Of a stretch of DNA of 64,000 nt, positions 42,884 through 64,000 are shown piece by piece. Position numbers and translations under genes: made by a program. This DNA is from Acidimicrobiia bacterium. Its GTDB lineage: Bacteria; Actinomycetota; Acidimicrobiia; Spongiisociales; ZC4RG35. The notes under the pieces are model-generated. The model worked only from the letters and a program-made list of their open reading frames with translations. It searched no databases and was not told the DNA's origin. Positions within the stretch are counted from its first letter, which is position 1. Each line of letters begins with the position of its first letter. The stretch covers positions 988-64,987 of the forward strand of contig JBHJOH010000013.1 in the NCBI GenBank assembly GCA_050329955.1, in the 5' to 3' direction.

Positions 42884-43804
42884 ATGCGAGTCACCTCAAC
42901 CATCGGAACCGAGTCGGTCGGGATCCCGTCATCGCCGTCGGCGGTTGTCGAGGCGGCGGCGGCGGCGGAGCGTCAGGGTTTTCGATCCGCCTGGTGCACG
43001 CACTTCAGCCGGGGGATCGACTCACTCACCGTTTTGGCCGCGGCCGCCACCGCCACAACGTCCATCGAGCTCGGGGTCGGCGTGATCCCGACCTTCCCCC
43101 GCCACCCGGTGGCGCTCGCCCAGTCGGCTGCCACCGTCCAGTCGCTCTCGGGTGGCCGACTGGTGCTCGGAGTGGGTGTGTCGCATCGCCCGGTCATCGA
43201 GGCCATGCACGGACTCGATTACTCCGATCAACTCGGGCACATGCGCGAGTATCTGACCGTGCTCGGCGGTCTTCTCACCGACGGTGCCATCAGCTTCCAG
43301 GGTACGCACTACCGCGTCGATGCCTCGATTCACATTCCTGCTGCCAGCGCGGTGCCGGTGGTGGTCGGTGCGTTGGCAGAGGGGATGAGTCGGGTGGCGG
43401 GCGAGTTCGCCGATGGTGTCACGACCTGGCTGGCCGGGCCCCGTTCCCTCGAACAGGTGGTGGTACCCGCCGTCACCGACGGTGCTGTCCGAGCGGGCCG
43501 CCGGGATCCGCGCGTCGTGGCTGCGGTGCCAGTAGCCGTGGACAGCGACGCCGCCCGGGCGGCGGAGGCCGCCGACCGGGTGTTCGCGCTCTACGGAACC
43601 CTCGCCAATTACCAGCGCTTGTTCGAACGCGAAGGCGTCGACAGGCCCTCCCAGCTCGCCGTCGTGGGGTCGGAGGAGACGGTGACGGCCGGGCTCGGGG
43701 CGTTGTTCGCGGCGGGCGCCACCGATGTGTGGGCGATCCCCTTCGACACCGGAAACGGCACCGACGCCACCCAGTCGCTCCTCGCCCGACTGGCCGTCAG
43801 CTGA
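42884..43804 (+). CDS. LLM-class F420-dependent oxidoreductase
   Basis: AERQGFRSAWCTHFSRGIDSLTVLAAAA...GRLVLGVGVSHRPVIE...YQRLFEREG is the typical luciferase-like/F420 family layout. Confidence 0.85.
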   Translation: MRVTSTIGTESVGIPSSPSAVVEAAAAAERQGFRSAWCTHFSRGIDSLTVLAAAATATTSIELGVGVIPTFPRHPVALAQSAATVQSLSGGRLVLGVGVSHRPVIEAMHGLDYSDQLGHMREYLTVLGGLLTDGAISFQGTHYRVDASIHIPAASAVPVVVGALAEGMSRVAGEFADGVTTWLAGPRSLEQVVVPAVTDGAVRAGRRDPRVVAAVPVAVDSDAARAAEAADRVFALYGTLANYQRLFEREGVDRPSQLAVVGSEETVTAGLGALFAAGATDVWAIPFDTGNGTDATQSLLARLAVS

Positions 43805-44657
43805 GCAGAGGCGAAGGCGGCTCAGGCTGGTCGGGTTGCCAGTCGCCGCTGATGCGCAGTGCATCGGCGATCGGCTTGAGCGTCTCGAAGCGAAGTCCCG
43901 ATCGGAGTGCCTCCAGCGCCAACACCCGGGTCGGGTCGATGTTGCCGAGGCTGACGTTGAGCCCGAACCGCCCGATCAAAGCCACCTGCTGATCCTTGAT
44001 CGGCGCCTCCCACACGAGACGGTCCGAGGCATGCCCCGCACATCCGGCGATGGTGTCCACCGCCGACATGTCGATGCCACCACCCGCGTCGAACACACCC
44101 ACACCCTTACCGGACTCCCGTCCTTCGACGACCACCCACGACGAGCCCCACTCCAGATCGAGGCACGCCTGTTCGGCCAGCGCGTCAGCCGGGGGCTGCT
44201 GGTCGGGGTCCTTCTTCCCGACCTCGCTGATCACGGTCAGGCCGGCGTCGCGGGCGCACTCGATGACCCGTTTCCGCCGATCGGCCGGGAGGTCGATGGT
44301 GCCGTCGGACACTTCGACCGCCGTGAATCCAAGCTCGCGGACCTTGGCCATGAACACGCGGCAGTGGTGCCGGACGATCGCCGCCTCGAACAGGGTTCCT
44401 CCGGGGAATGTGAGGATGTCCCGCTGAGCGATCGCCTCCAACTTCTCGCGCAGCACCGGCTCGGGGACGAACACCGAAGTTCCGAAGCTGAGTTTCCAGT
44501 GGTCGATCCACGCTCCGGACATCTCGAGGGTGTCACGGGTTGCGGCGAGCCCGAGGCCCGTGTCGATCACCATGGTGACTCCGAGCGAGCGCGGCGACGA
44601 GGTCCGCTCGGCGCGGACCTCATCGGTCAGTGCGAGCTCACCCCACCCGCTGATCAC
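43797..44657 (-). CDS. comA: (2R)-phospho-3-sulfolactate synthase (ComA/XcbB-type), first step of CoM biosynthesis
   Basis: Motif-for-motif match to my recollection of archaeal ComA: [91 protein letters not shown]. Confidence 0.85.
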
Positions 44658-61726: not shown

Positions 61727-62679
61727 GAGCAGGCACCGCGCCCCGGATCTCTCTGGCGCTGCTCCCCACTCCTTTGGTGCCCGCTCCTCGTCTCTCGGCC
61801 GAGATCGGCGTGGAGGTGTGGTTCAAGCGCGACGACCTGACCGGTCTCGGGCTCGGGGGCAACAAGGTCCGTGCGCTGGAGTTTCTCATCGGTGCCGCCG
61901 AAGCCGCCGGTTCGGATTGCCTCATCACCGGCGGCGGCCCGCAATCGAACTGGGTGATGCTCGCCGCGCTGGCCGCCATCACCCGGGGACTCGACGCTCA
62001 TGTCGTCTACTTCGGACCGGAGGTGGAATCCACCGGGAACCTTCAACTCCTGCGCAGCCTTCCAGGCATCGAGATCACCTTCACGGGCGACCCGGTGCGC
62101 GCCTCGGTCGATCCCGTCCTCGACGCCGTGGCCGGTCGCCTGTCCTCGGCCGGCCACCACCCATTCCTCATCGGGAGAGGCGGCGCCGGGCCCATCGGCG
62201 GGCTGGGGTATCTCCACGCCACACTCGAGATCGACCGGCAGGCCGAACAAACCGGATTCGCAACGGTCTGGACCGCCACTGGGTCGTGTGGGACCCAGGC
62301 CGGGCTGGTGGCAGGACACGCCGTCTCAACTCATCGCCGCCGCGTGGTGGGGGTGTCGGTGCACCGACCGGTCGAGGAATGTGTGGAGCGCATCGGGGCG
62401 ATCGCCCGGGGAACGCTCGAGTTGTACGGCGCCTCCGCTGCCCCTCATCCGGATTGGGAGGTGCTCGGAGGCCAACTGGGACGCGACCCGGCCGCCGAGC
62501 GTCGGGTGGAAGAGGCGGCACGGCTGGTGGCGAGGACCGAAGGAGTGTTCCTCGACCCCGAGTTTGCCGCCCCGGCGATGGCCGAGCTCGTCGCCCGGGC
62601 GGCGGAAGTCGAGGGCCCGGTGCTGTTCCTGGTCTCCGGGGGCGGTCCCACCCTGCTGACCGAGGGGGCGTTCGCATGA
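61723..62679 (+). CDS. PLP-dependent ACC-deaminase / D-cysteine-desulfhydrase-family enzyme; XcbE-type candidate
   Basis: LPTPLVPAPRLSAEIGVEVWFKRDDLTGLGLGGNKVRALEFL (PLP Lys in GGNK), GGGPQSNW, TGSCGTQAGL. ATGA overlaps on both sides. Confidence 0.88.
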   Translation: MRAGTAPRISLALLPTPLVPAPRLSAEIGVEVWFKRDDLTGLGLGGNKVRALEFLIGAAEAAGSDCLITGGGPQSNWVMLAALAAITRGLDAHVVYFGPEVESTGNLQLLRSLPGIEITFTGDPVRASVDPVLDAVAGRLSSAGHHPFLIGRGGAGPIGGLGYLHATLEIDRQAEQTGFATVWTATGSCGTQAGLVAGHAVSTHRRRVVGVSVHRPVEECVERIGAIARGTLELYGASAAPHPDWEVLGGQLGRDPAAERRVEEAARLVARTEGVFLDPEFAAPAMAELVARAAEVEGPVLFLVSGGGPTLLTEGAFA

Positions 62680-64000
62680 CCACCCCGCCCCCCGGGTACC
62701 TGGGCGCTGCGGGACGCGTCGCATCGGGCCCGGCTGCTTCATTGGTCGACACCGGCTATCGCCTCGAGATCGAGGATGCCGGACTGCTCCATCGGGGGTT
62801 GGGACTGGCCGACCTGGCCCACCTCCACGAGTTGGAGGGAATTGGTGTGGTCCCGCCCGCCGCCGCCGCCGCCCTCGGGTCGGAATTGCTCGTCATTCAC
62901 GAGACGCCCGCCGACCGGTTCCCCTACGACGCCGTCTACGGCGATGCCTACAACAGTCGGGAACGTGAGCTGGAACGGCGACTCGGAGCGTTGGCAGGGT
63001 GGTTACACACCGGGCGAACCCGACGCGAAGCCGGCCGAATCGCTTTTCGGATCGCCACGAGATCCTCGCTGCTCGATCTTCACGATGCGGTGGCTCGCTT
63101 CGGCTCCTCATTGACCACCTTGGCCCGGGCGCAGGCCACGGCGCCGTGGAACGACACCACGTATCTCCAACCCGCCCAGCCGTCCACCTTCGGCCATTAC
63201 CTGTCGGGCTTCGCCGAGCAGGTGACCCGCGATCTGGAACGAATCACCGTCGCCCACCGGCTTGTGAATCGGTCCCCAGCCGGTGTCGGCGGAGTCGCCG
63301 GTTCGTCCATTCCCCTCGACCGCCATCGGCTTTCCACCGCCCTCGGGTTCGATGAGCCCGCCGCGCACACCCGCGATGCCATGTGGTCGGTCGACTGGCT
63401 CACCGACGTGATGGTGGCCGCCACTCAGGCCGTCATCACCGCCGATCGGCTGGCAGAGGACCTGGAGATATTCGCCAGTCCCCAGTTCGGCTACGTGGTG
63501 CTCTCGGGCTCGGCCACCCGGGCTTCGGTGCTGCTTCCTCAGAAGCGGAACCCTTATGCCCTGGCGGTCATCCGAGGTGGTGCCGGGACCTTGATCGGTC
63601 GAACCACCGGGGTCATGGTCACGCAGCGGACCCCATCGGCTCGCACCGACAACTGGCTTCACGCCTATGGCGAGGTGCTTCGCTCCGTCGACCTGGCCCG
63701 ACGCCTCCTGATCCTGGCGACTGATGTGGTCGAAGGTCTCGAAGTCGATGTGAGAGCGCTGACAGCGTCGGCCGGCGCCAACTTCTCGATCTCGGCCGAC
63801 CTCACCGAACGGCTGGTGCTCGACCGGGGTCTCGACTACCGCACGGCCTACCGCGTGGTCGGTCGGGCCGTGGCCGATGCGGTTGGGTCCGGCGGCTCCC
63901 ACCTCGAACCTGGGTCGCTCGACCGTGCCGCCGCCGCTCTCGGTCTCGGCGGAATCGACGACCTCGACGGCGTGCTGGCGGCGGTCAACGATCCCGCTGC
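62676..64000 (+). CDS. Aspartase/fumarase-superfamily lyase (argininosuccinate-lyase-like), partial (3' end beyond the window); XcbC/XcbD-type candidate
   Basis: Not in the ORF track (no in-window stop). My translation from ATG 62676: MTTPPPGYLGAAGRV...TYLQPAQPSTFGHYL...GVGGVAGSSIPLDR...SATRASVLLPQKRNPYALAVIRG..., an ASL-type layout and signature loop. Confidence 0.85.
   Translation, partial: MTTPPPGYLGAAGRVASGPAASLVDTGYRLEIEDAGLLHRGLGLADLAHLHELEGIGVVPPAAAAALGSELLVIHETPADRFPYDAVYGDAYNSRERELERRLGALAGWLHTGRTRREAGRIAFRIATRSSLLDLHDAVARFGSSLTTLARAQATAPWNDTTYLQPAQPSTFGHYLSGFAEQVTRDLERITVAHRLVNRSPAGVGGVAGSSIPLDRHRLSTALGFDEPAAHTRDAMWSVDWLTDVMVAATQAVITADRLAEDLEIFASPQFGYVVLSGSATRASVLLPQKRNPYALAVIRGGAGTLIGRTTGVMVTQRTPSARTDNWLHAYGEVLRSVDLARRLLILATDVVEGLEVDVRALTASAGANFSISADLTERLVLDRGLDYRTAYRVVGRAVADAVGSGGSHLEPGSLDRAAAALGLGGIDDLDGVLAAVNDPA

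Follow-up and report, generated by a model that had tools for sequence, protein, structure and literature searches.

What a bacterium would do with coenzyme M (CoM), and where the compound to be joined to it would come from, are the questions raised by a gene island in an uncultured member of the Acidimicrobiia found in a stromatolite. The stretch of DNA that we analyzed (the window, 64,000 nucleotides of one contig) carries, between 42.9 and 64 kb, 17 to 18 intact and mostly translationally coupled genes that match known bacterial CoM systems. Gene classes were identified with lists of open reading frames (ORFs), Pfam, NCBIfam, and gene calls on the public contig, and every class named in the first-pass annotation was recovered in its place. 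The matches are far above chance (e.g., 8e-79 for ComA in Pfam and 6e-244 for 2-KPCC against PDB 1MO9). Judged from these genes, the island is a complete CoM-making and CoM-using gene set, a known system that is mostly explained. The substance that it handles, its production of CoM, and its expression are predictions from the genes alone. A second locus (L002), which is 99.65% identical to window positions 51723 to 64000, runs past the window end.

All five genes for bacterial CoM synthesis (xcbA to xcbE), a pathway that has been demonstrated in vitro (PMC9457059), are present. ComA (XcbB, phosphosulfolactate synthase; 43797..44657, minus strand) scores 300.8 bits with TIGR03849 (cut-off 280) and is 59% identical to XcbB of Xanthobacter Py2, but only 32.5% to the copy in Nocardioides JS614. 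The remaining four are consecutive on the plus strand. The first of these, at 59469..60383, had been described as an unknown ORF but is XcbA, the fifth CoM-biosynthesis enzyme, which catalyzes the last, reductive step (PMC9457059); it matches Pfam DUF7714 with 277 bits and NF052538 with 368 bits (cut-off 150, match from residue 6), and is homologous to the pXAUT01 region upstream of xcbB. It is followed by XcbD (3-sulfopropionylcysteine synthase of the aspartase/fumarase superfamily; 60380..61726), with 673 bits to NF052536 (cut-off 600) and 45% and 57% identity to the Py2 and JS614 proteins, respectively. The XcbE-like pyridoxal phosphate (PLP) enzyme (61723..62679; 39% to Py2, 52% to JS614, synteny kept) and the XcbC-like lyase (62676..64000, truncated by the window end) fall under the strict NCBIfam cut-offs that ComA, XcbA, and XcbD pass, with the CoM models still their top matches (CoM_syn_XcbE, 233 bits, cut-off 450; CoM_syn_XcbC, 387 bits, cut-off 575 for the full protein). 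XcbC is complete in L002 (511 amino acids; 41% identical to Py2, 66% to JS614). Homology and signature residues suggest that ComA would carry out the first step and XcbC the elimination of phosphate from phosphosulfolactate, and that XcbB, XcbC, XcbD, XcbE, and XcbA together would convert phosphoenolpyruvate, sulfite, and cysteine to CoM. The view that CoM use is rare in bacteria does not agree with sequence data, from which 1,444 XcbA clusters and 931 2-KPCC clusters were retrieved; bacterial CoM genes are much commoner in metagenomes than the earlier annotation assumed.

The genes for CoM use resemble those for epoxide carboxylation. The epoxyalkane:CoM transferase (EaCoMT; XecA type, also termed MetE2; 56879..57988, plus strand) is 80% identical to Py2 XecA over 366 amino acids and 48.5% to JS614 EtnE, and contains the zinc ligands (HxC...E...C) and the EaCoMT-specific insertion. 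The 2-ketopropyl-CoM oxidoreductase/carboxylase (2-KPCC, XecC type; 44654..46222, minus strand) is 67% identical to Py2 XecC and matches PDB 1MO9 over its full length (phmmer, 813 bits, compared with 118 for the next family). All ten positions checked are retained (R56, C82, H84, C87, H137, M140, R365, F501, H506, and Q509), including the F501/H506 dyad, the carboxylation-specific role of which is known (PMC8358701). A generic reductase was ruled out by the grouping with XecC and by the retention of C82/C87, the dyad, and R365. Two short-chain dehydrogenases (SDRs) are candidates for the intervening oxidation. SDR2 (55926..56657, plus strand) has R-hydroxypropyl-CoM dehydrogenase (R-HPCDH, 2CFC) as its top PDB match (229 bits, next 166), aligns with conserved S142/Y155/K159 and Arg152/Arg196 positions, and is 64% identical to the JS614 SDR adjoining the KPCC homolog and 49% to Py2 XecD. 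SDR1 (49985..50752, minus strand) has the S-specific enzyme (S-HPCDH, 4GH5) as its top match (209 bits), with one of two sulfonate-binding residues conserved in the alignment, and is 63% identical to the JS614 SDR in the CoADR-SDR-CoA-transferase block and 46% to Py2 XecE. These similarities suggest that the CoM thiolate would open a short-chain epoxide (epoxyethane/epoxypropane class) at EaCoMT, that the R- and S-HPCDH-like enzymes would oxidize the 2-hydroxyalkyl-CoM, and that 2-KPCC would reductively cleave the C-S bond and carboxylate the enolate, releasing CoM. The first-pass annotation had proposed a complete module for making and using CoM, without an oxygenase in the window, to be abandoned if its proteins were placed outside the CoM-pathway clades; the proposal is supported, since 2-KPCC, MetE2, and ComA lie inside these families (813 vs 118 bits, 80% identity to XecA, and a score above the TIGR03849 equivalog cut-off, respectively).

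Further genes link the island to the ethene/vinyl-chloride (etn) cluster of JS614, in which 15 island genes have homologs with 49% to 76% identity in the same local blocks, the exceptions being ComA and the MetE-like protein MetE1 (30%). These include CoA-transferase subunits A (49063..49977; Pfam CoA_trans, 5e-25) and B (48266..49066; CoA_trans, GGAGG before the ATG at 49066), both on the minus strand and 68% identical to JS614, and an ADP-forming acyl-CoA synthetase (46224..48269, minus strand; CoA_binding_2, Succ_CoA_lig, and ATP-grasp_5; 49% identity). An acylating aldehyde dehydrogenase (ALDH; 58061..59476, plus strand) is SauS-like (NF047625, acylating sulfoacetaldehyde dehydrogenase, 514 bits, under the cut-off of 600) and shares 76% identity with the ALDH of the JS614 cluster. 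A CoA-disulfide reductase (CoADR)-like, single-cysteine FAD disulfide reductase (50769..52103, minus strand; 51% identity) reaches 358 bits with TIGR03385, under the cut-off, has NADH oxidase 6RUZ and CoA-disulfide reductases as top PDB matches, and contains the cysteine motif GLCGIPYY. The roles of the CoADR-like protein, CoA-transferase, synthetase, and ALDH are only putative in model organisms too (PMC11507031). From their linkage in etn clusters, ALDH, CoA-transferase, and synthetase may convert the product (acetoacetate, or malonate semialdehyde/carboxymethyl-CoM) to a CoA thioester, and the CoADR-like flavoprotein, a candidate CoM-disulfide reductase, may keep the CoM pool reduced. XecA, XecC, and ComA of the island are closest to proteobacterial copies and the remaining genes to actinobacterial ones, a mosaic that indicates past transfer. 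The Xanthobacter model first proposed for the island holds for the enzyme classes, all of which are present, but half of the island is nearer the Nocardioides/Mycobacterium etn cluster.

The genes are compactly arranged. On the minus strand, for which refined start positions were used (including ATG codons at 50752 for SDR1 and 49066 for CoA-transferase B, and 55708 for the MEDS gene), the junctions from the CoADR-like gene to comA are +16, +7, -4, -4, +1, and -4 nt, with wider gaps between MetE1 and the CoADR-like gene (137 nt) and between the PucR-type regulator and MetE1 (169 nt). On the plus strand, gaps of 221 nt (SDR2/EaCoMT) and 72 nt (EaCoMT/ALDH) are followed by overlaps of 8 nt (ALDH/XcbA) and 4 nt each (XcbA/XcbD, XcbD/XcbE, and XcbE/XcbC). 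An EtnR1-like transcriptional activator (53451..55112; GGDEF_2 and PucR HTH domains, 51% to its JS614 homolog) and an EtnR2-like MEDS sensor protein (55109..55708; Pfam MEDS 8e-43, 51% to 52% to two JS614 copies) were previously reported as flanked by the two operons. Both the MEDS and the PucR/CdaR gene are on the minus strand, directly upstream of the minus-strand genes headed by MetE1, and so do not mark a divide between two divergent operons. The signal to which EtnR1/EtnR2 respond is ethylene oxide and not ethylene, and a pair of this type senses epoxide in Mycobacterium, where EtnR1 function has been described (PMC11197473). By analogy with etn clusters, epoxide rather than alkene would induce the island genes.

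No soluble di-iron monooxygenase (SDIMO) was found in the window or in the 8.7 kb of contig downstream of it (tblastn with EtnABCD and XamoA-F, best E-value 0.001 over 36 amino acids; Pfam searches of other ORFs), which extends the earlier observation that no alkene monooxygenase is in view. The island is probably a self-contained CoM system unlinked to a dedicated alkene monooxygenase. Ordinary ethene or propene assimilation, with the island as the downstream half and a dedicated monooxygenase encoded elsewhere, is the less likely reading, although all cultured CoM-using heterotrophs are alkene oxidizers (PMC11507031) and, since the inspected sequence amounts to only some 73 kb of a single contig, such a gene may sit elsewhere in the genome. 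In model organisms the monooxygenase adjoins the CoM genes, whereas the present contig lacks one over the 52 kb to one side of MetE1 and the 19 kb to the other. Among 82 related loci with MetE1, only one (L067) has an SDIMO within 10 kb, directly behind the acyl-CoA synthetase gene, an arrangement also seen in JS614. In locus L032 the island stops after the synthetase and unrelated genes follow. The three closest relatives (L089 to L091), with the same compact layout and 2-KPCC proteins 78% to 83% identical, have no SDIMO within 10 kb. The epoxide probably originates outside the island and could be supplied by an unlinked, possibly non-dedicated host oxygenase or by microbial-mat neighbors; the island would then serve in epoxide scavenging or detoxification and assimilation, as proposed for methanotrophs (PMC11507031). 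The lack of a nearby monooxygenase has a precedent: an ethylene-induced methanotroph CoM cluster without one was already published in 2024 (PMC11507031).

The new part of this otherwise known system is MetE1 (52241..53281, minus strand), a Zn-thiol alkyltransferase-like protein. As first annotated, it has a MetE-type domain (Pfam Meth_synt_2) with zinc ligands (H222/C224/C318 invariant, E257 aligned with the Glu ligand), but it is not an EaCoMT: its identity to XecA/EtnE is 28% to 31%, the insertion typical of EaCoMT is missing, and the protein falls into a family of its own. Methionine synthase was also rejected, as A17/A69/I192 replace the homocysteine-binding Ser/Glu/Asp. The family, undescribed and tightly conserved (64% to 82% identity), comprises 313 clusters and at least 135 loci in species genomes, nearly all within CoM islands, in at least 80 mostly actinobacterial species; it was not found on the alkene plasmids of JS614, Py2, and NBB4. 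Its neighbors in the 82 loci include pyruvate dehydrogenase (PDH)-E1-like alpha/beta genes (66 to 68 loci), which are missing from the present island, an FMN-dependent 2-hydroxyacid dehydrogenase (15), and an acetolactate synthase (ALS)-type TPP enzyme (6). These partners suggest 2-hydroxy/2-oxo-acid chemistry, for which the alkene pathway has no need, and they and the distinct invariant sites would fit a substrate other than an alkene-derived epoxide, with MetE1 joining CoM to another electrophile (e.g., a halogenated or oxo-acid-type C2-C3 compound) and the shared downstream enzymes processing the conjugate. However, such a substrate is improbable for the island as a whole, as EaCoMT, both HPCDH types, and the epoxide-type regulator pair account fully for an epoxide route, EaCoMT accompanies MetE1 in 46 of the 82 loci, usually a companion and not replaced by it, and the SDIMO-bearing L067 also has E1 alpha/beta-MetE1. 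Alongside epoxide processing, MetE1 at the head of the catabolic operon would most simply be a second Zn-dependent CoM S-alkyltransferase, for a different electrophile.

That the island is a functionless, horizontally acquired relic, or a set of generic enzymes (MetE, disulfide reductase, and SDR) that have nothing to do with CoM, is hardly credible despite its mosaic origin, given ORFs free of frameshifts and internal stop codons, flank-like (host-like) GC and GC3, translational coupling, retained 2-KPCC signature residues, curated CoM models passed by ComA, XcbA, and XcbD, and a layout preserved in the closest relatives.

The heliorhodopsin reported for the window is real. An F420-dependent luciferase-like oxidoreductase (42884..43804, plus strand; Bac_luciferase 187 bits, TIGR03564 274.9 bits, cut-off 234) is convergent with comA, the two genes overlapping by 8 nt, and may be an accessory gene of the island. 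In L089, L090, and L091, a Bac_luciferase-family gene (assigned with Pfam only) follows comA one to two genes downstream, on the opposite strand, and one adjoins xcbC in 10 of the 82 MetE1 loci.

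Coenzyme M (CoM) genes occur here on DNA from a stromatolite metagenome (run SRR3310977, project PRJNA315555), and the same DNA is present in the metagenome-assembled genome (MAG) GCA_964398535.1. Since they share a contig with housekeeping genes such as sigma-70, as well as with a 2-oxoacid dehydrogenase cluster and heliorhodopsin, and since the GC content (0.64 to 0.69) and GC3 of the island resemble those of its flanks, the island is chromosomal. With refined start positions, the minus strand encodes, in order, MEDS, PucR, MetE1, a CoADR-like protein, SDR1, CoA-transferase A, CoA-transferase B, an ADP-forming acyl-CoA synthetase, 2-KPCC, and ComA (XcbB). 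Junctions from the CoADR-like gene onward range from -4 to +16 nt, and larger gaps lie ahead of MetE1 (169 nt) and behind it (137 nt). The plus strand encodes SDR2, EaCoMT (MetE2), ALDH, XcbA, XcbD, XcbE, and XcbC, the last four junctions being overlaps of 4 to 8 nt; XcbC is cut by the window end and has 511 aa in an overlapping public contig (L002). The intergenic regions upstream of MetE1, SDR2, and MetE2 (n = 3) have in common, as possible operator sites, only GACAGGAC/GTCCTGTC-type 8-mers, which is about chance level for such sizes, and a promoter and terminator scan of 43000-62900 gave counts that were not above those of shuffled sequences. A full package for CoM synthesis and use in the chromosome of an uncultured stromatolite Acidimicrobiia bacterium, with no monooxygenase nearby, represents a new host and setting.

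The CoM-using enzymes are closely related to characterized proteins. The 2-KPCC homolog aligns with the solved Xanthobacter enzyme (PDB 1MO9) over residues 5-520 with 813 bits, while the next family, MerA, scores 118 bits, and it is 67% identical to XecC of Xanthobacter Py2. All positions checked are conserved (C82, C87, F501, H506, R56, H84, H137, M140, R365, and Q509), including the redox-active pair Cys82/Cys87 and the Phe501-His506 dyad, which replaces the His-Glu of ordinary DSORs and directs carboxylation (PMC8358701). Its similarity to XecC is thus clearly above that to other disulfide oxidoreductases and the signature residues are present; by sequence it is a true XecC-type carboxylating enzyme, in line with the 2-KPCC homolog named in the first-pass annotation, and is predicted to cleave 2-ketopropyl-CoM to acetoacetate with NADPH and CO2. 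MetE2 (56879-57988, plus strand) is 80% identical to XecA and 48.5% to EtnE of Nocardioides strain JS614, and has both the His-x-Cys...Glu...Cys Zn site and the insertion of about 22 aa after HxC that is common to XecA and EtnE; by orthology, Zn site, and insertion it is an EaCoMT. The best solved relative of SDR2 is R-HPCDH (2CFC, 229 bits), with the catalytic triad S142/Y155/K159 and R152/R196 aligned and conserved. For SDR1 it is S-HPCDH (4GH5, 209 bits), but of the two basic residues only K214 is kept, the R211 position being occupied by Thr, with a Lys one residue earlier; the sulfonate-binding residues are R152/R196 in R-HPCDH and R211/K214 in S-HPCDH. The CoADR-like protein has the single-cysteine motif found in CoA-disulfide reductases and NADH oxidases, and the ALDH is closest to the acylating sulfoacetaldehyde dehydrogenase SauS.

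For CoM synthesis, ComA passes the TIGR03849 equivalog model (300.8 bits, cut-off 280) and XcbD passes NF052536 (673 bits, cut-off 600). XcbC and XcbE have the corresponding CoM models as their best matches (387 and 233 bits), below the 'exception' cut-offs of 575 and 450, respectively; they are 66% and 52% identical to the JS614 copies and keep synteny with XcbA and XcbD. The two fumarase-superfamily lyases and the PLP enzyme recognized on the plus strand by the first-pass annotation are thus XcbD, a probable XcbC, and a probable XcbE, and the ORF that it had left as unknown is a DUF7714/XcbA-family protein (NF052538, 368 bits, cut-off 150). XcbA is a [2Fe-2S] protein that reduces sulfoethanethioaldehyde to CoM, the five-step pathway having been reconstituted from Xanthobacter (PMC9457059). 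With these XcbA-E assignments, of which XcbC and XcbE are probable, all five steps of CoM synthesis would be encoded, split over both strands. All of the gene classes named earlier were recovered by ORF and family searches, and with the Xcb steps, EaCoMT, the dehydrogenases, and 2-KPCC encoded together, the description of the island as a complete CoM-making and CoM-using module is essentially right.

Homology and active-site conservation indicate a cycle in which CoM is synthesized, its thiolate opens an epoxide ring, the resulting hydroxyalkyl-CoM is oxidized, and reductive, carboxylating C-S cleavage regenerates CoM. On the basis of conserved linkage, the product may then be activated to a CoA thioester by the ALDH, CoA-transferase, and synthetase, and the CoADR-like enzyme may reduce CoM disulfide. 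The roles of the ALDH, CoA-transferase, synthetase, and CoADR are proposals in the model strains as well (PMC11507031), and a proposed route via malonate semialdehyde has been summarized (PMC8727900).

The island also encodes a pair of regulators, a 553-aa PucR/CdaR-type protein with GGDEF_2 and HTH_30 domains and a stand-alone MEDS protein of 199 aa, whose genes overlap by 4 nt. With a C-terminal HTH in the activator, joint encoding, and 51% to 52% identity to the JS614 pair, they are of the EtnR1/EtnR2 type. Activation of the etn promoter in Mycobacterium NBB4 requires EtnR1, which is of the PucR/CdaR type, as well as EtnR2, a MEDS protein; the two respond to ethylene oxide, not ethylene, and regulator homologs have been remarked to co-occur with alkene/CoM-like genes in other Actinobacteria (PMC11197473). 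From the conserved linkage we infer that expression of the island may be induced by epoxides through this pair.

Neither the window nor the 8.7 kb that follow its end at 64000 (L002) yielded a soluble di-iron monooxygenase (SDIMO) in tblastn searches with EtnABCD of JS614 and XamoA-F of Py2, and Pfam scans of the remaining ORFs found no oxygenase family except two luciferase-like genes (42884-43804 and 33611-34774). The earlier observation that no alkene monooxygenase is in view therefore holds for the window and extends to the downstream contig, neither of which has the SDIMO that accompanies CoM genes in alkene-assimilation clusters of the etn and xamo-xec type. Because no monooxygenase is linked, supply of the epoxide from outside the island is favored. 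The methanotroph Methylohalobius crimeensis and about 10% of methanotroph genomes have an etnE/CoM cluster without an alkene monooxygenase, which is induced by ethylene and has been explained as a means of detoxifying the epoxyethane that pMMO forms (PMC11507031). Given this precedent, the missing linked oxygenase is not new in itself.

The likeness to the Xanthobacter Py2 plasmid pXAUT01 is strongest in EaCoMT (80%), 2-KPCC (67%, with all checked active-site residues identical), and ComA (59%), followed by the R- and S-HPCDH-like SDRs (49% and 46%), XcbD (45%), XcbC (41%), and XcbE (39%); an XcbA homolog is present as well. In contrast to Py2, an alphaproteobacterium, the Acidimicrobiia MAG has no adjoining XamoA-F genes and a different gene order. 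The CoADR-like, CoA-transferase, and acyl-CoA synthetase proteins have no match in a 41.5-kb stretch of pXAUT01 (L005), and MetE1 matches only XecA (29%). Close counterparts of the SauS-like ALDH and MEDS/PucR are likewise lacking there, where the aldehyde dehydrogenase Xaut_4863 is unrelated-scoring and the MEDS match is weak and partial (34% over 107 aa). In the same stretch, an XcbA-homologous region upstream of xcbB (23338-24167) was matched in two frames and has no annotated CDS, which suggests a frameshifted or unannotated xcbA1. The xcbA cloned in a PNAS study (XAUT_RS25610), whose tag number is distant from those of its xcbB and xcbE (RS24680 and RS24695), is probably another copy.

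Megablast of the minus-strand unit matched only plasmid pNOCA01 of Nocardioides JS614, the ethene/vinyl chloride (etn) cluster of which contains homologs of all island genes except MetE1 (only EtnE, 30%) in the same local blocks. These blocks, CoADR-like/SDR/CoA-transferase A/CoA-transferase B/acyl-CoA synthetase, XcbA/XcbD/XcbE/XcbC, PucR/MEDS, SDR/2-KPCC, and ALDH, are common to the etn clusters of JS614 (49% to 76% identity) and Mycobacterium JS60 and NBB4, as is the EtnR1/EtnR2 type of regulator (PMC11197473). Identities to the JS614 homologs are 51% for the CoADR-like protein, 63% for SDR1, 68% each for CoA-transferases A and B, 49% for the acyl-CoA synthetase, 76% for ALDH, 57%, 57%, 52%, and 66% for XcbA, XcbD, XcbE, and XcbC, 51% to 52% for PucR and MEDS, and 64% for SDR2. 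However, the window lacks EtnABCD, and its EaCoMT and 2-KPCC belong to the Xanthobacter type, with 48.5% and 55% identity to their JS614 homologs; for ComA the value is only 32.5%. No counterpart of MetE1 occurs on the plasmids of JS614, NBB4, or Py2, and the island is chromosomal, beside housekeeping genes, rather than on a plasmid. Because EaCoMT, 2-KPCC, and ComA are Xanthobacter-type and the remainder is of the actinobacterial etn type, the island is a mosaic, most of it a recognizable recombination of the Xanthobacter xec/xcb and actinobacterial etn systems.

M. crimeensis shares with the window the CoM epoxide pathway, CoM biosynthesis, and a MEDS regulator on one island that lacks a dedicated alkene monooxygenase (PMC11507031), and its 2-KPCC (P0220 in our protein collection) is 67% identical to that of the window. 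It differs in that pMMO, not seen in the window, supplies the epoxide by co-oxidation, and in having no significant XcbA similarity, a sulfoacetaldehyde dehydrogenase being proposed as the analogue (PMC11507031). Compared by its description, the 13-gene cluster has a single MEDS-HTH regulator, with mention of neither a MetE1-like nor a CoADR-like gene. A monooxygenase-less cluster is thus already published; the value of the present case lies in its new host lineage, in MetE1 as a family, and in the evidence for a wide distribution of such islands.

MetE1 (52241-53281, minus strand) forms a family of its own with 64% to 82% internal identity. It belongs to the Meth_synt_2 fold family, has the His-x-Cys...Glu...Cys Zn site, and has a core (folate-independent) methionine synthase of the MetE/MesD kind (PDB 3RPD, 87 bits) as its best solved relative. 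The first-pass annotation had described both it and MetE2 as MetE-like alkyltransferases; MetE2 is an EaCoMT, but this function is rejected for MetE1, which is only 28% to 31% identical to XecA, EtnE, and MetE2 and has a different insertion (EAPGFQLEP) in place of that of EaCoMT. A methionine synthase is also rejected, given the CoM-gene context and the substitution of three substrate residues. In MetE/MesD, Ser22, Glu73, and Asp188 of 3RPD bind the amino-acid end of homocysteine (PMC7857596); MetE1 keeps the Zn ligands and has Ala17, Ala69, and Ile192 at these positions, without variation among 20 members of the family. MetE1 stays below the cut-off of every NCBIfam methionine-synthase model, and no DUF1852/MesX gene was found near it.

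The protein collection contains 313 close MetE1 clusters, and species-representative genomes contain 135 MetE1 loci; in the 82 loci examined MetE1 is almost always within a CoM island. Most holders are MAGs of soil Actinomycetes, but cultured strains also carry MetE1 islands, namely Actinomycetospora endophytica TBRC 5722, Actinomycetospora sp. TBRC 11914 and NBRC 106375, Kineosporia sp. R_H_3, Nocardioides marmoriginsengisoli Gsoil 097, and Nocardioides sp. CPCC 206347. Within 10 kb of MetE1, genes for PDH-E1-like alpha and beta subunits, directly upstream, are present in 66 and 68 of the 82 loci, MEDS in 56, PucR in 55, SDR1 and SDR2 in 54 and 53, 2-KPCC in 51, ALDH in 47, and EaCoMT in 46. 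The module of PDH-E1-like genes and MetE1 (for example, 7977-11080 in L007 and 7868-11038 in L018) is often preceded by a PucR gene of its own and followed by a MEDS gene, and an E2 gene occurs in only one of the 82 loci (L007). An FMN-dependent 2-hydroxyacid dehydrogenase lies beside MetE1 in 15 loci and an ALS-superfamily TPP enzyme in six, and Pseudonocardia-type islands have one or two further MetE-like paralogs, 35% to 39% identical to MetE1 (L010, L011, L017, L046, L049, L052, L055, L056, and L087). An SDIMO gene was detected within 10 kb of MetE1 in one of the 82 loci, a lower bound, as in many loci the sequence stops shortly after the synthetase gene; in L032, the island itself ends there. 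This sole case, in a Streptosporangiaceae MAG (L067, about 18.6-21 kb), is 56% identical to EtnC and lies right after the acyl-CoA synthetase gene as in JS614, in a locus that also has E1ab-MetE1.

We tentatively suggest, with appreciable doubt, that MetE1 marks a second, undescribed CoM-dependent reaction, that CoM islands lacking a monooxygenase are common among soil Actinomycetota and in this Acidimicrobiia lineage, and that the electrophile has a source other than a dedicated alkene monooxygenase. A TPP enzyme might, for instance, decarboxylate a C3 2-hydroxy- or 2-oxo-acid conjugate to 2-oxoethyl-CoM; alternatively, CoM might be eliminated from 2-oxoethyl-CoM in a TPP-dependent reaction like that of Xsc, to yield an acetyl unit. 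If either is true, bacteria employ CoM far more widely than one would expect from the few alkene oxidizers in culture. That E1ab-MetE1 acts as an entry module replacing the monooxygenase is a weakened proposal, as L067 has both. An Xsc orthology of the ALS-type TPP enzyme in the Pseudonocardia loci is unsupported; generic acetolactate-synthase models match best, and Xsc scores lower, far below its cut-offs. The window has no E1 partner genes linked to MetE1, and its own E1alpha/E1beta/E2 genes (11854-14972) are rejected as partners, being only 35% to 39% identical to the MetE1-linked E1/E2 of L007. An apparent E1beta-MetE1 fusion (P0010, on L094) is rejected as Rosetta-stone evidence, since on its contig MEDS is split and parts of E1beta are missing, a pattern often left by frameshifts in long-read assemblies. 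Neither the MetE1 family nor its association was found described in the searchable literature.

Bacterial CoM has been tied in the literature to a few alkene-oxidizing isolates and, since 2024, to some methanotrophs. The XcbA family comprises 1,444 clusters (E <= 1e-20) and the 2-KPCC family 931 clusters (E <= 1e-120), numbers that speak against the initial statement that CoM use is rare in bacteria; named holders include Carbonactinospora, Thiomonas, Rhodocyclaceae, Myxococcales, and a second Acidimicrobiia MAG. The nearest relatives of the window 2-KPCC (78% to 84% identical) have the same compact SDR/CoA-transferase/acyl-CoA synthetase/2-KPCC/ComA layout, with EaCoMT-XcbA-XcbD-XcbE divergent on the opposite strand as in the window, and these relatives have neither an SDIMO gene within 10 kb nor MetE1. 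Islands that have MetE1, as in the window, are present in at least 80 species-level genomes, mostly of soil Actinomycetes. If they are expressed, bacteria in soils and mats would meet short-chain epoxides or another CoM-reactive electrophile, as substrate or stress, more generally than has been thought. Several holders are cultured strains, which offer an experimental handle on the proposed downstream steps of ethene and vinyl chloride metabolism, of relevance to bioremediation.

In the protein collection, two gene calls join CoM genes to neighbors, ComA-2-KPCC (P0169, 799 aa) and, in a further Acidimicrobiia MAG, GAF-XcbA (P0357, 478 aa); each may be a genuine fusion or an assembly artefact, and the similar E1beta-MetE1 call looks like a frameshift artefact. 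Adjoining the island, the gene at 42884-43804 (plus strand) encodes an F420-dependent luciferase-like oxidoreductase (TIGR03564, NCBIfam) and overlaps the ComA stop by 8 nt. Because L089, L090, and L091, the closest relatives, each have a Bac_luciferase-family gene (Pfam calls only) one or two genes past ComA, and homologs 50% to 54% identical adjoin XcbC in 10 of the 82 MetE1 loci, this gene may belong to the CoM system. The 554-aa ORF at 41089-42753 (minus strand) has a coding-like GC3 of 0.87 and is rejected as part of the island, since Pfam and NCBIfam gave no match and none of the 82 related loci has a homolog. The region 36000-41000 has slightly lower GC (0.63 to 0.64) and contains an MFS transporter, two GntR/FCD regulators, and an alpha/beta hydrolase, and the second luciferase-like oxidoreductase gene (33611-34774) has a Pfam Bac_luciferase match only. 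The heliorhodopsin gene (24941-25708, minus strand; Pfam 322 bits) lies beside a cupin gene and a single ORF of 2526 aa (25935-33515, plus strand) composed of SdrD-B-like (nine stretches), DUF11, and related Ig-like repeats, which is probably a giant cell-surface protein.
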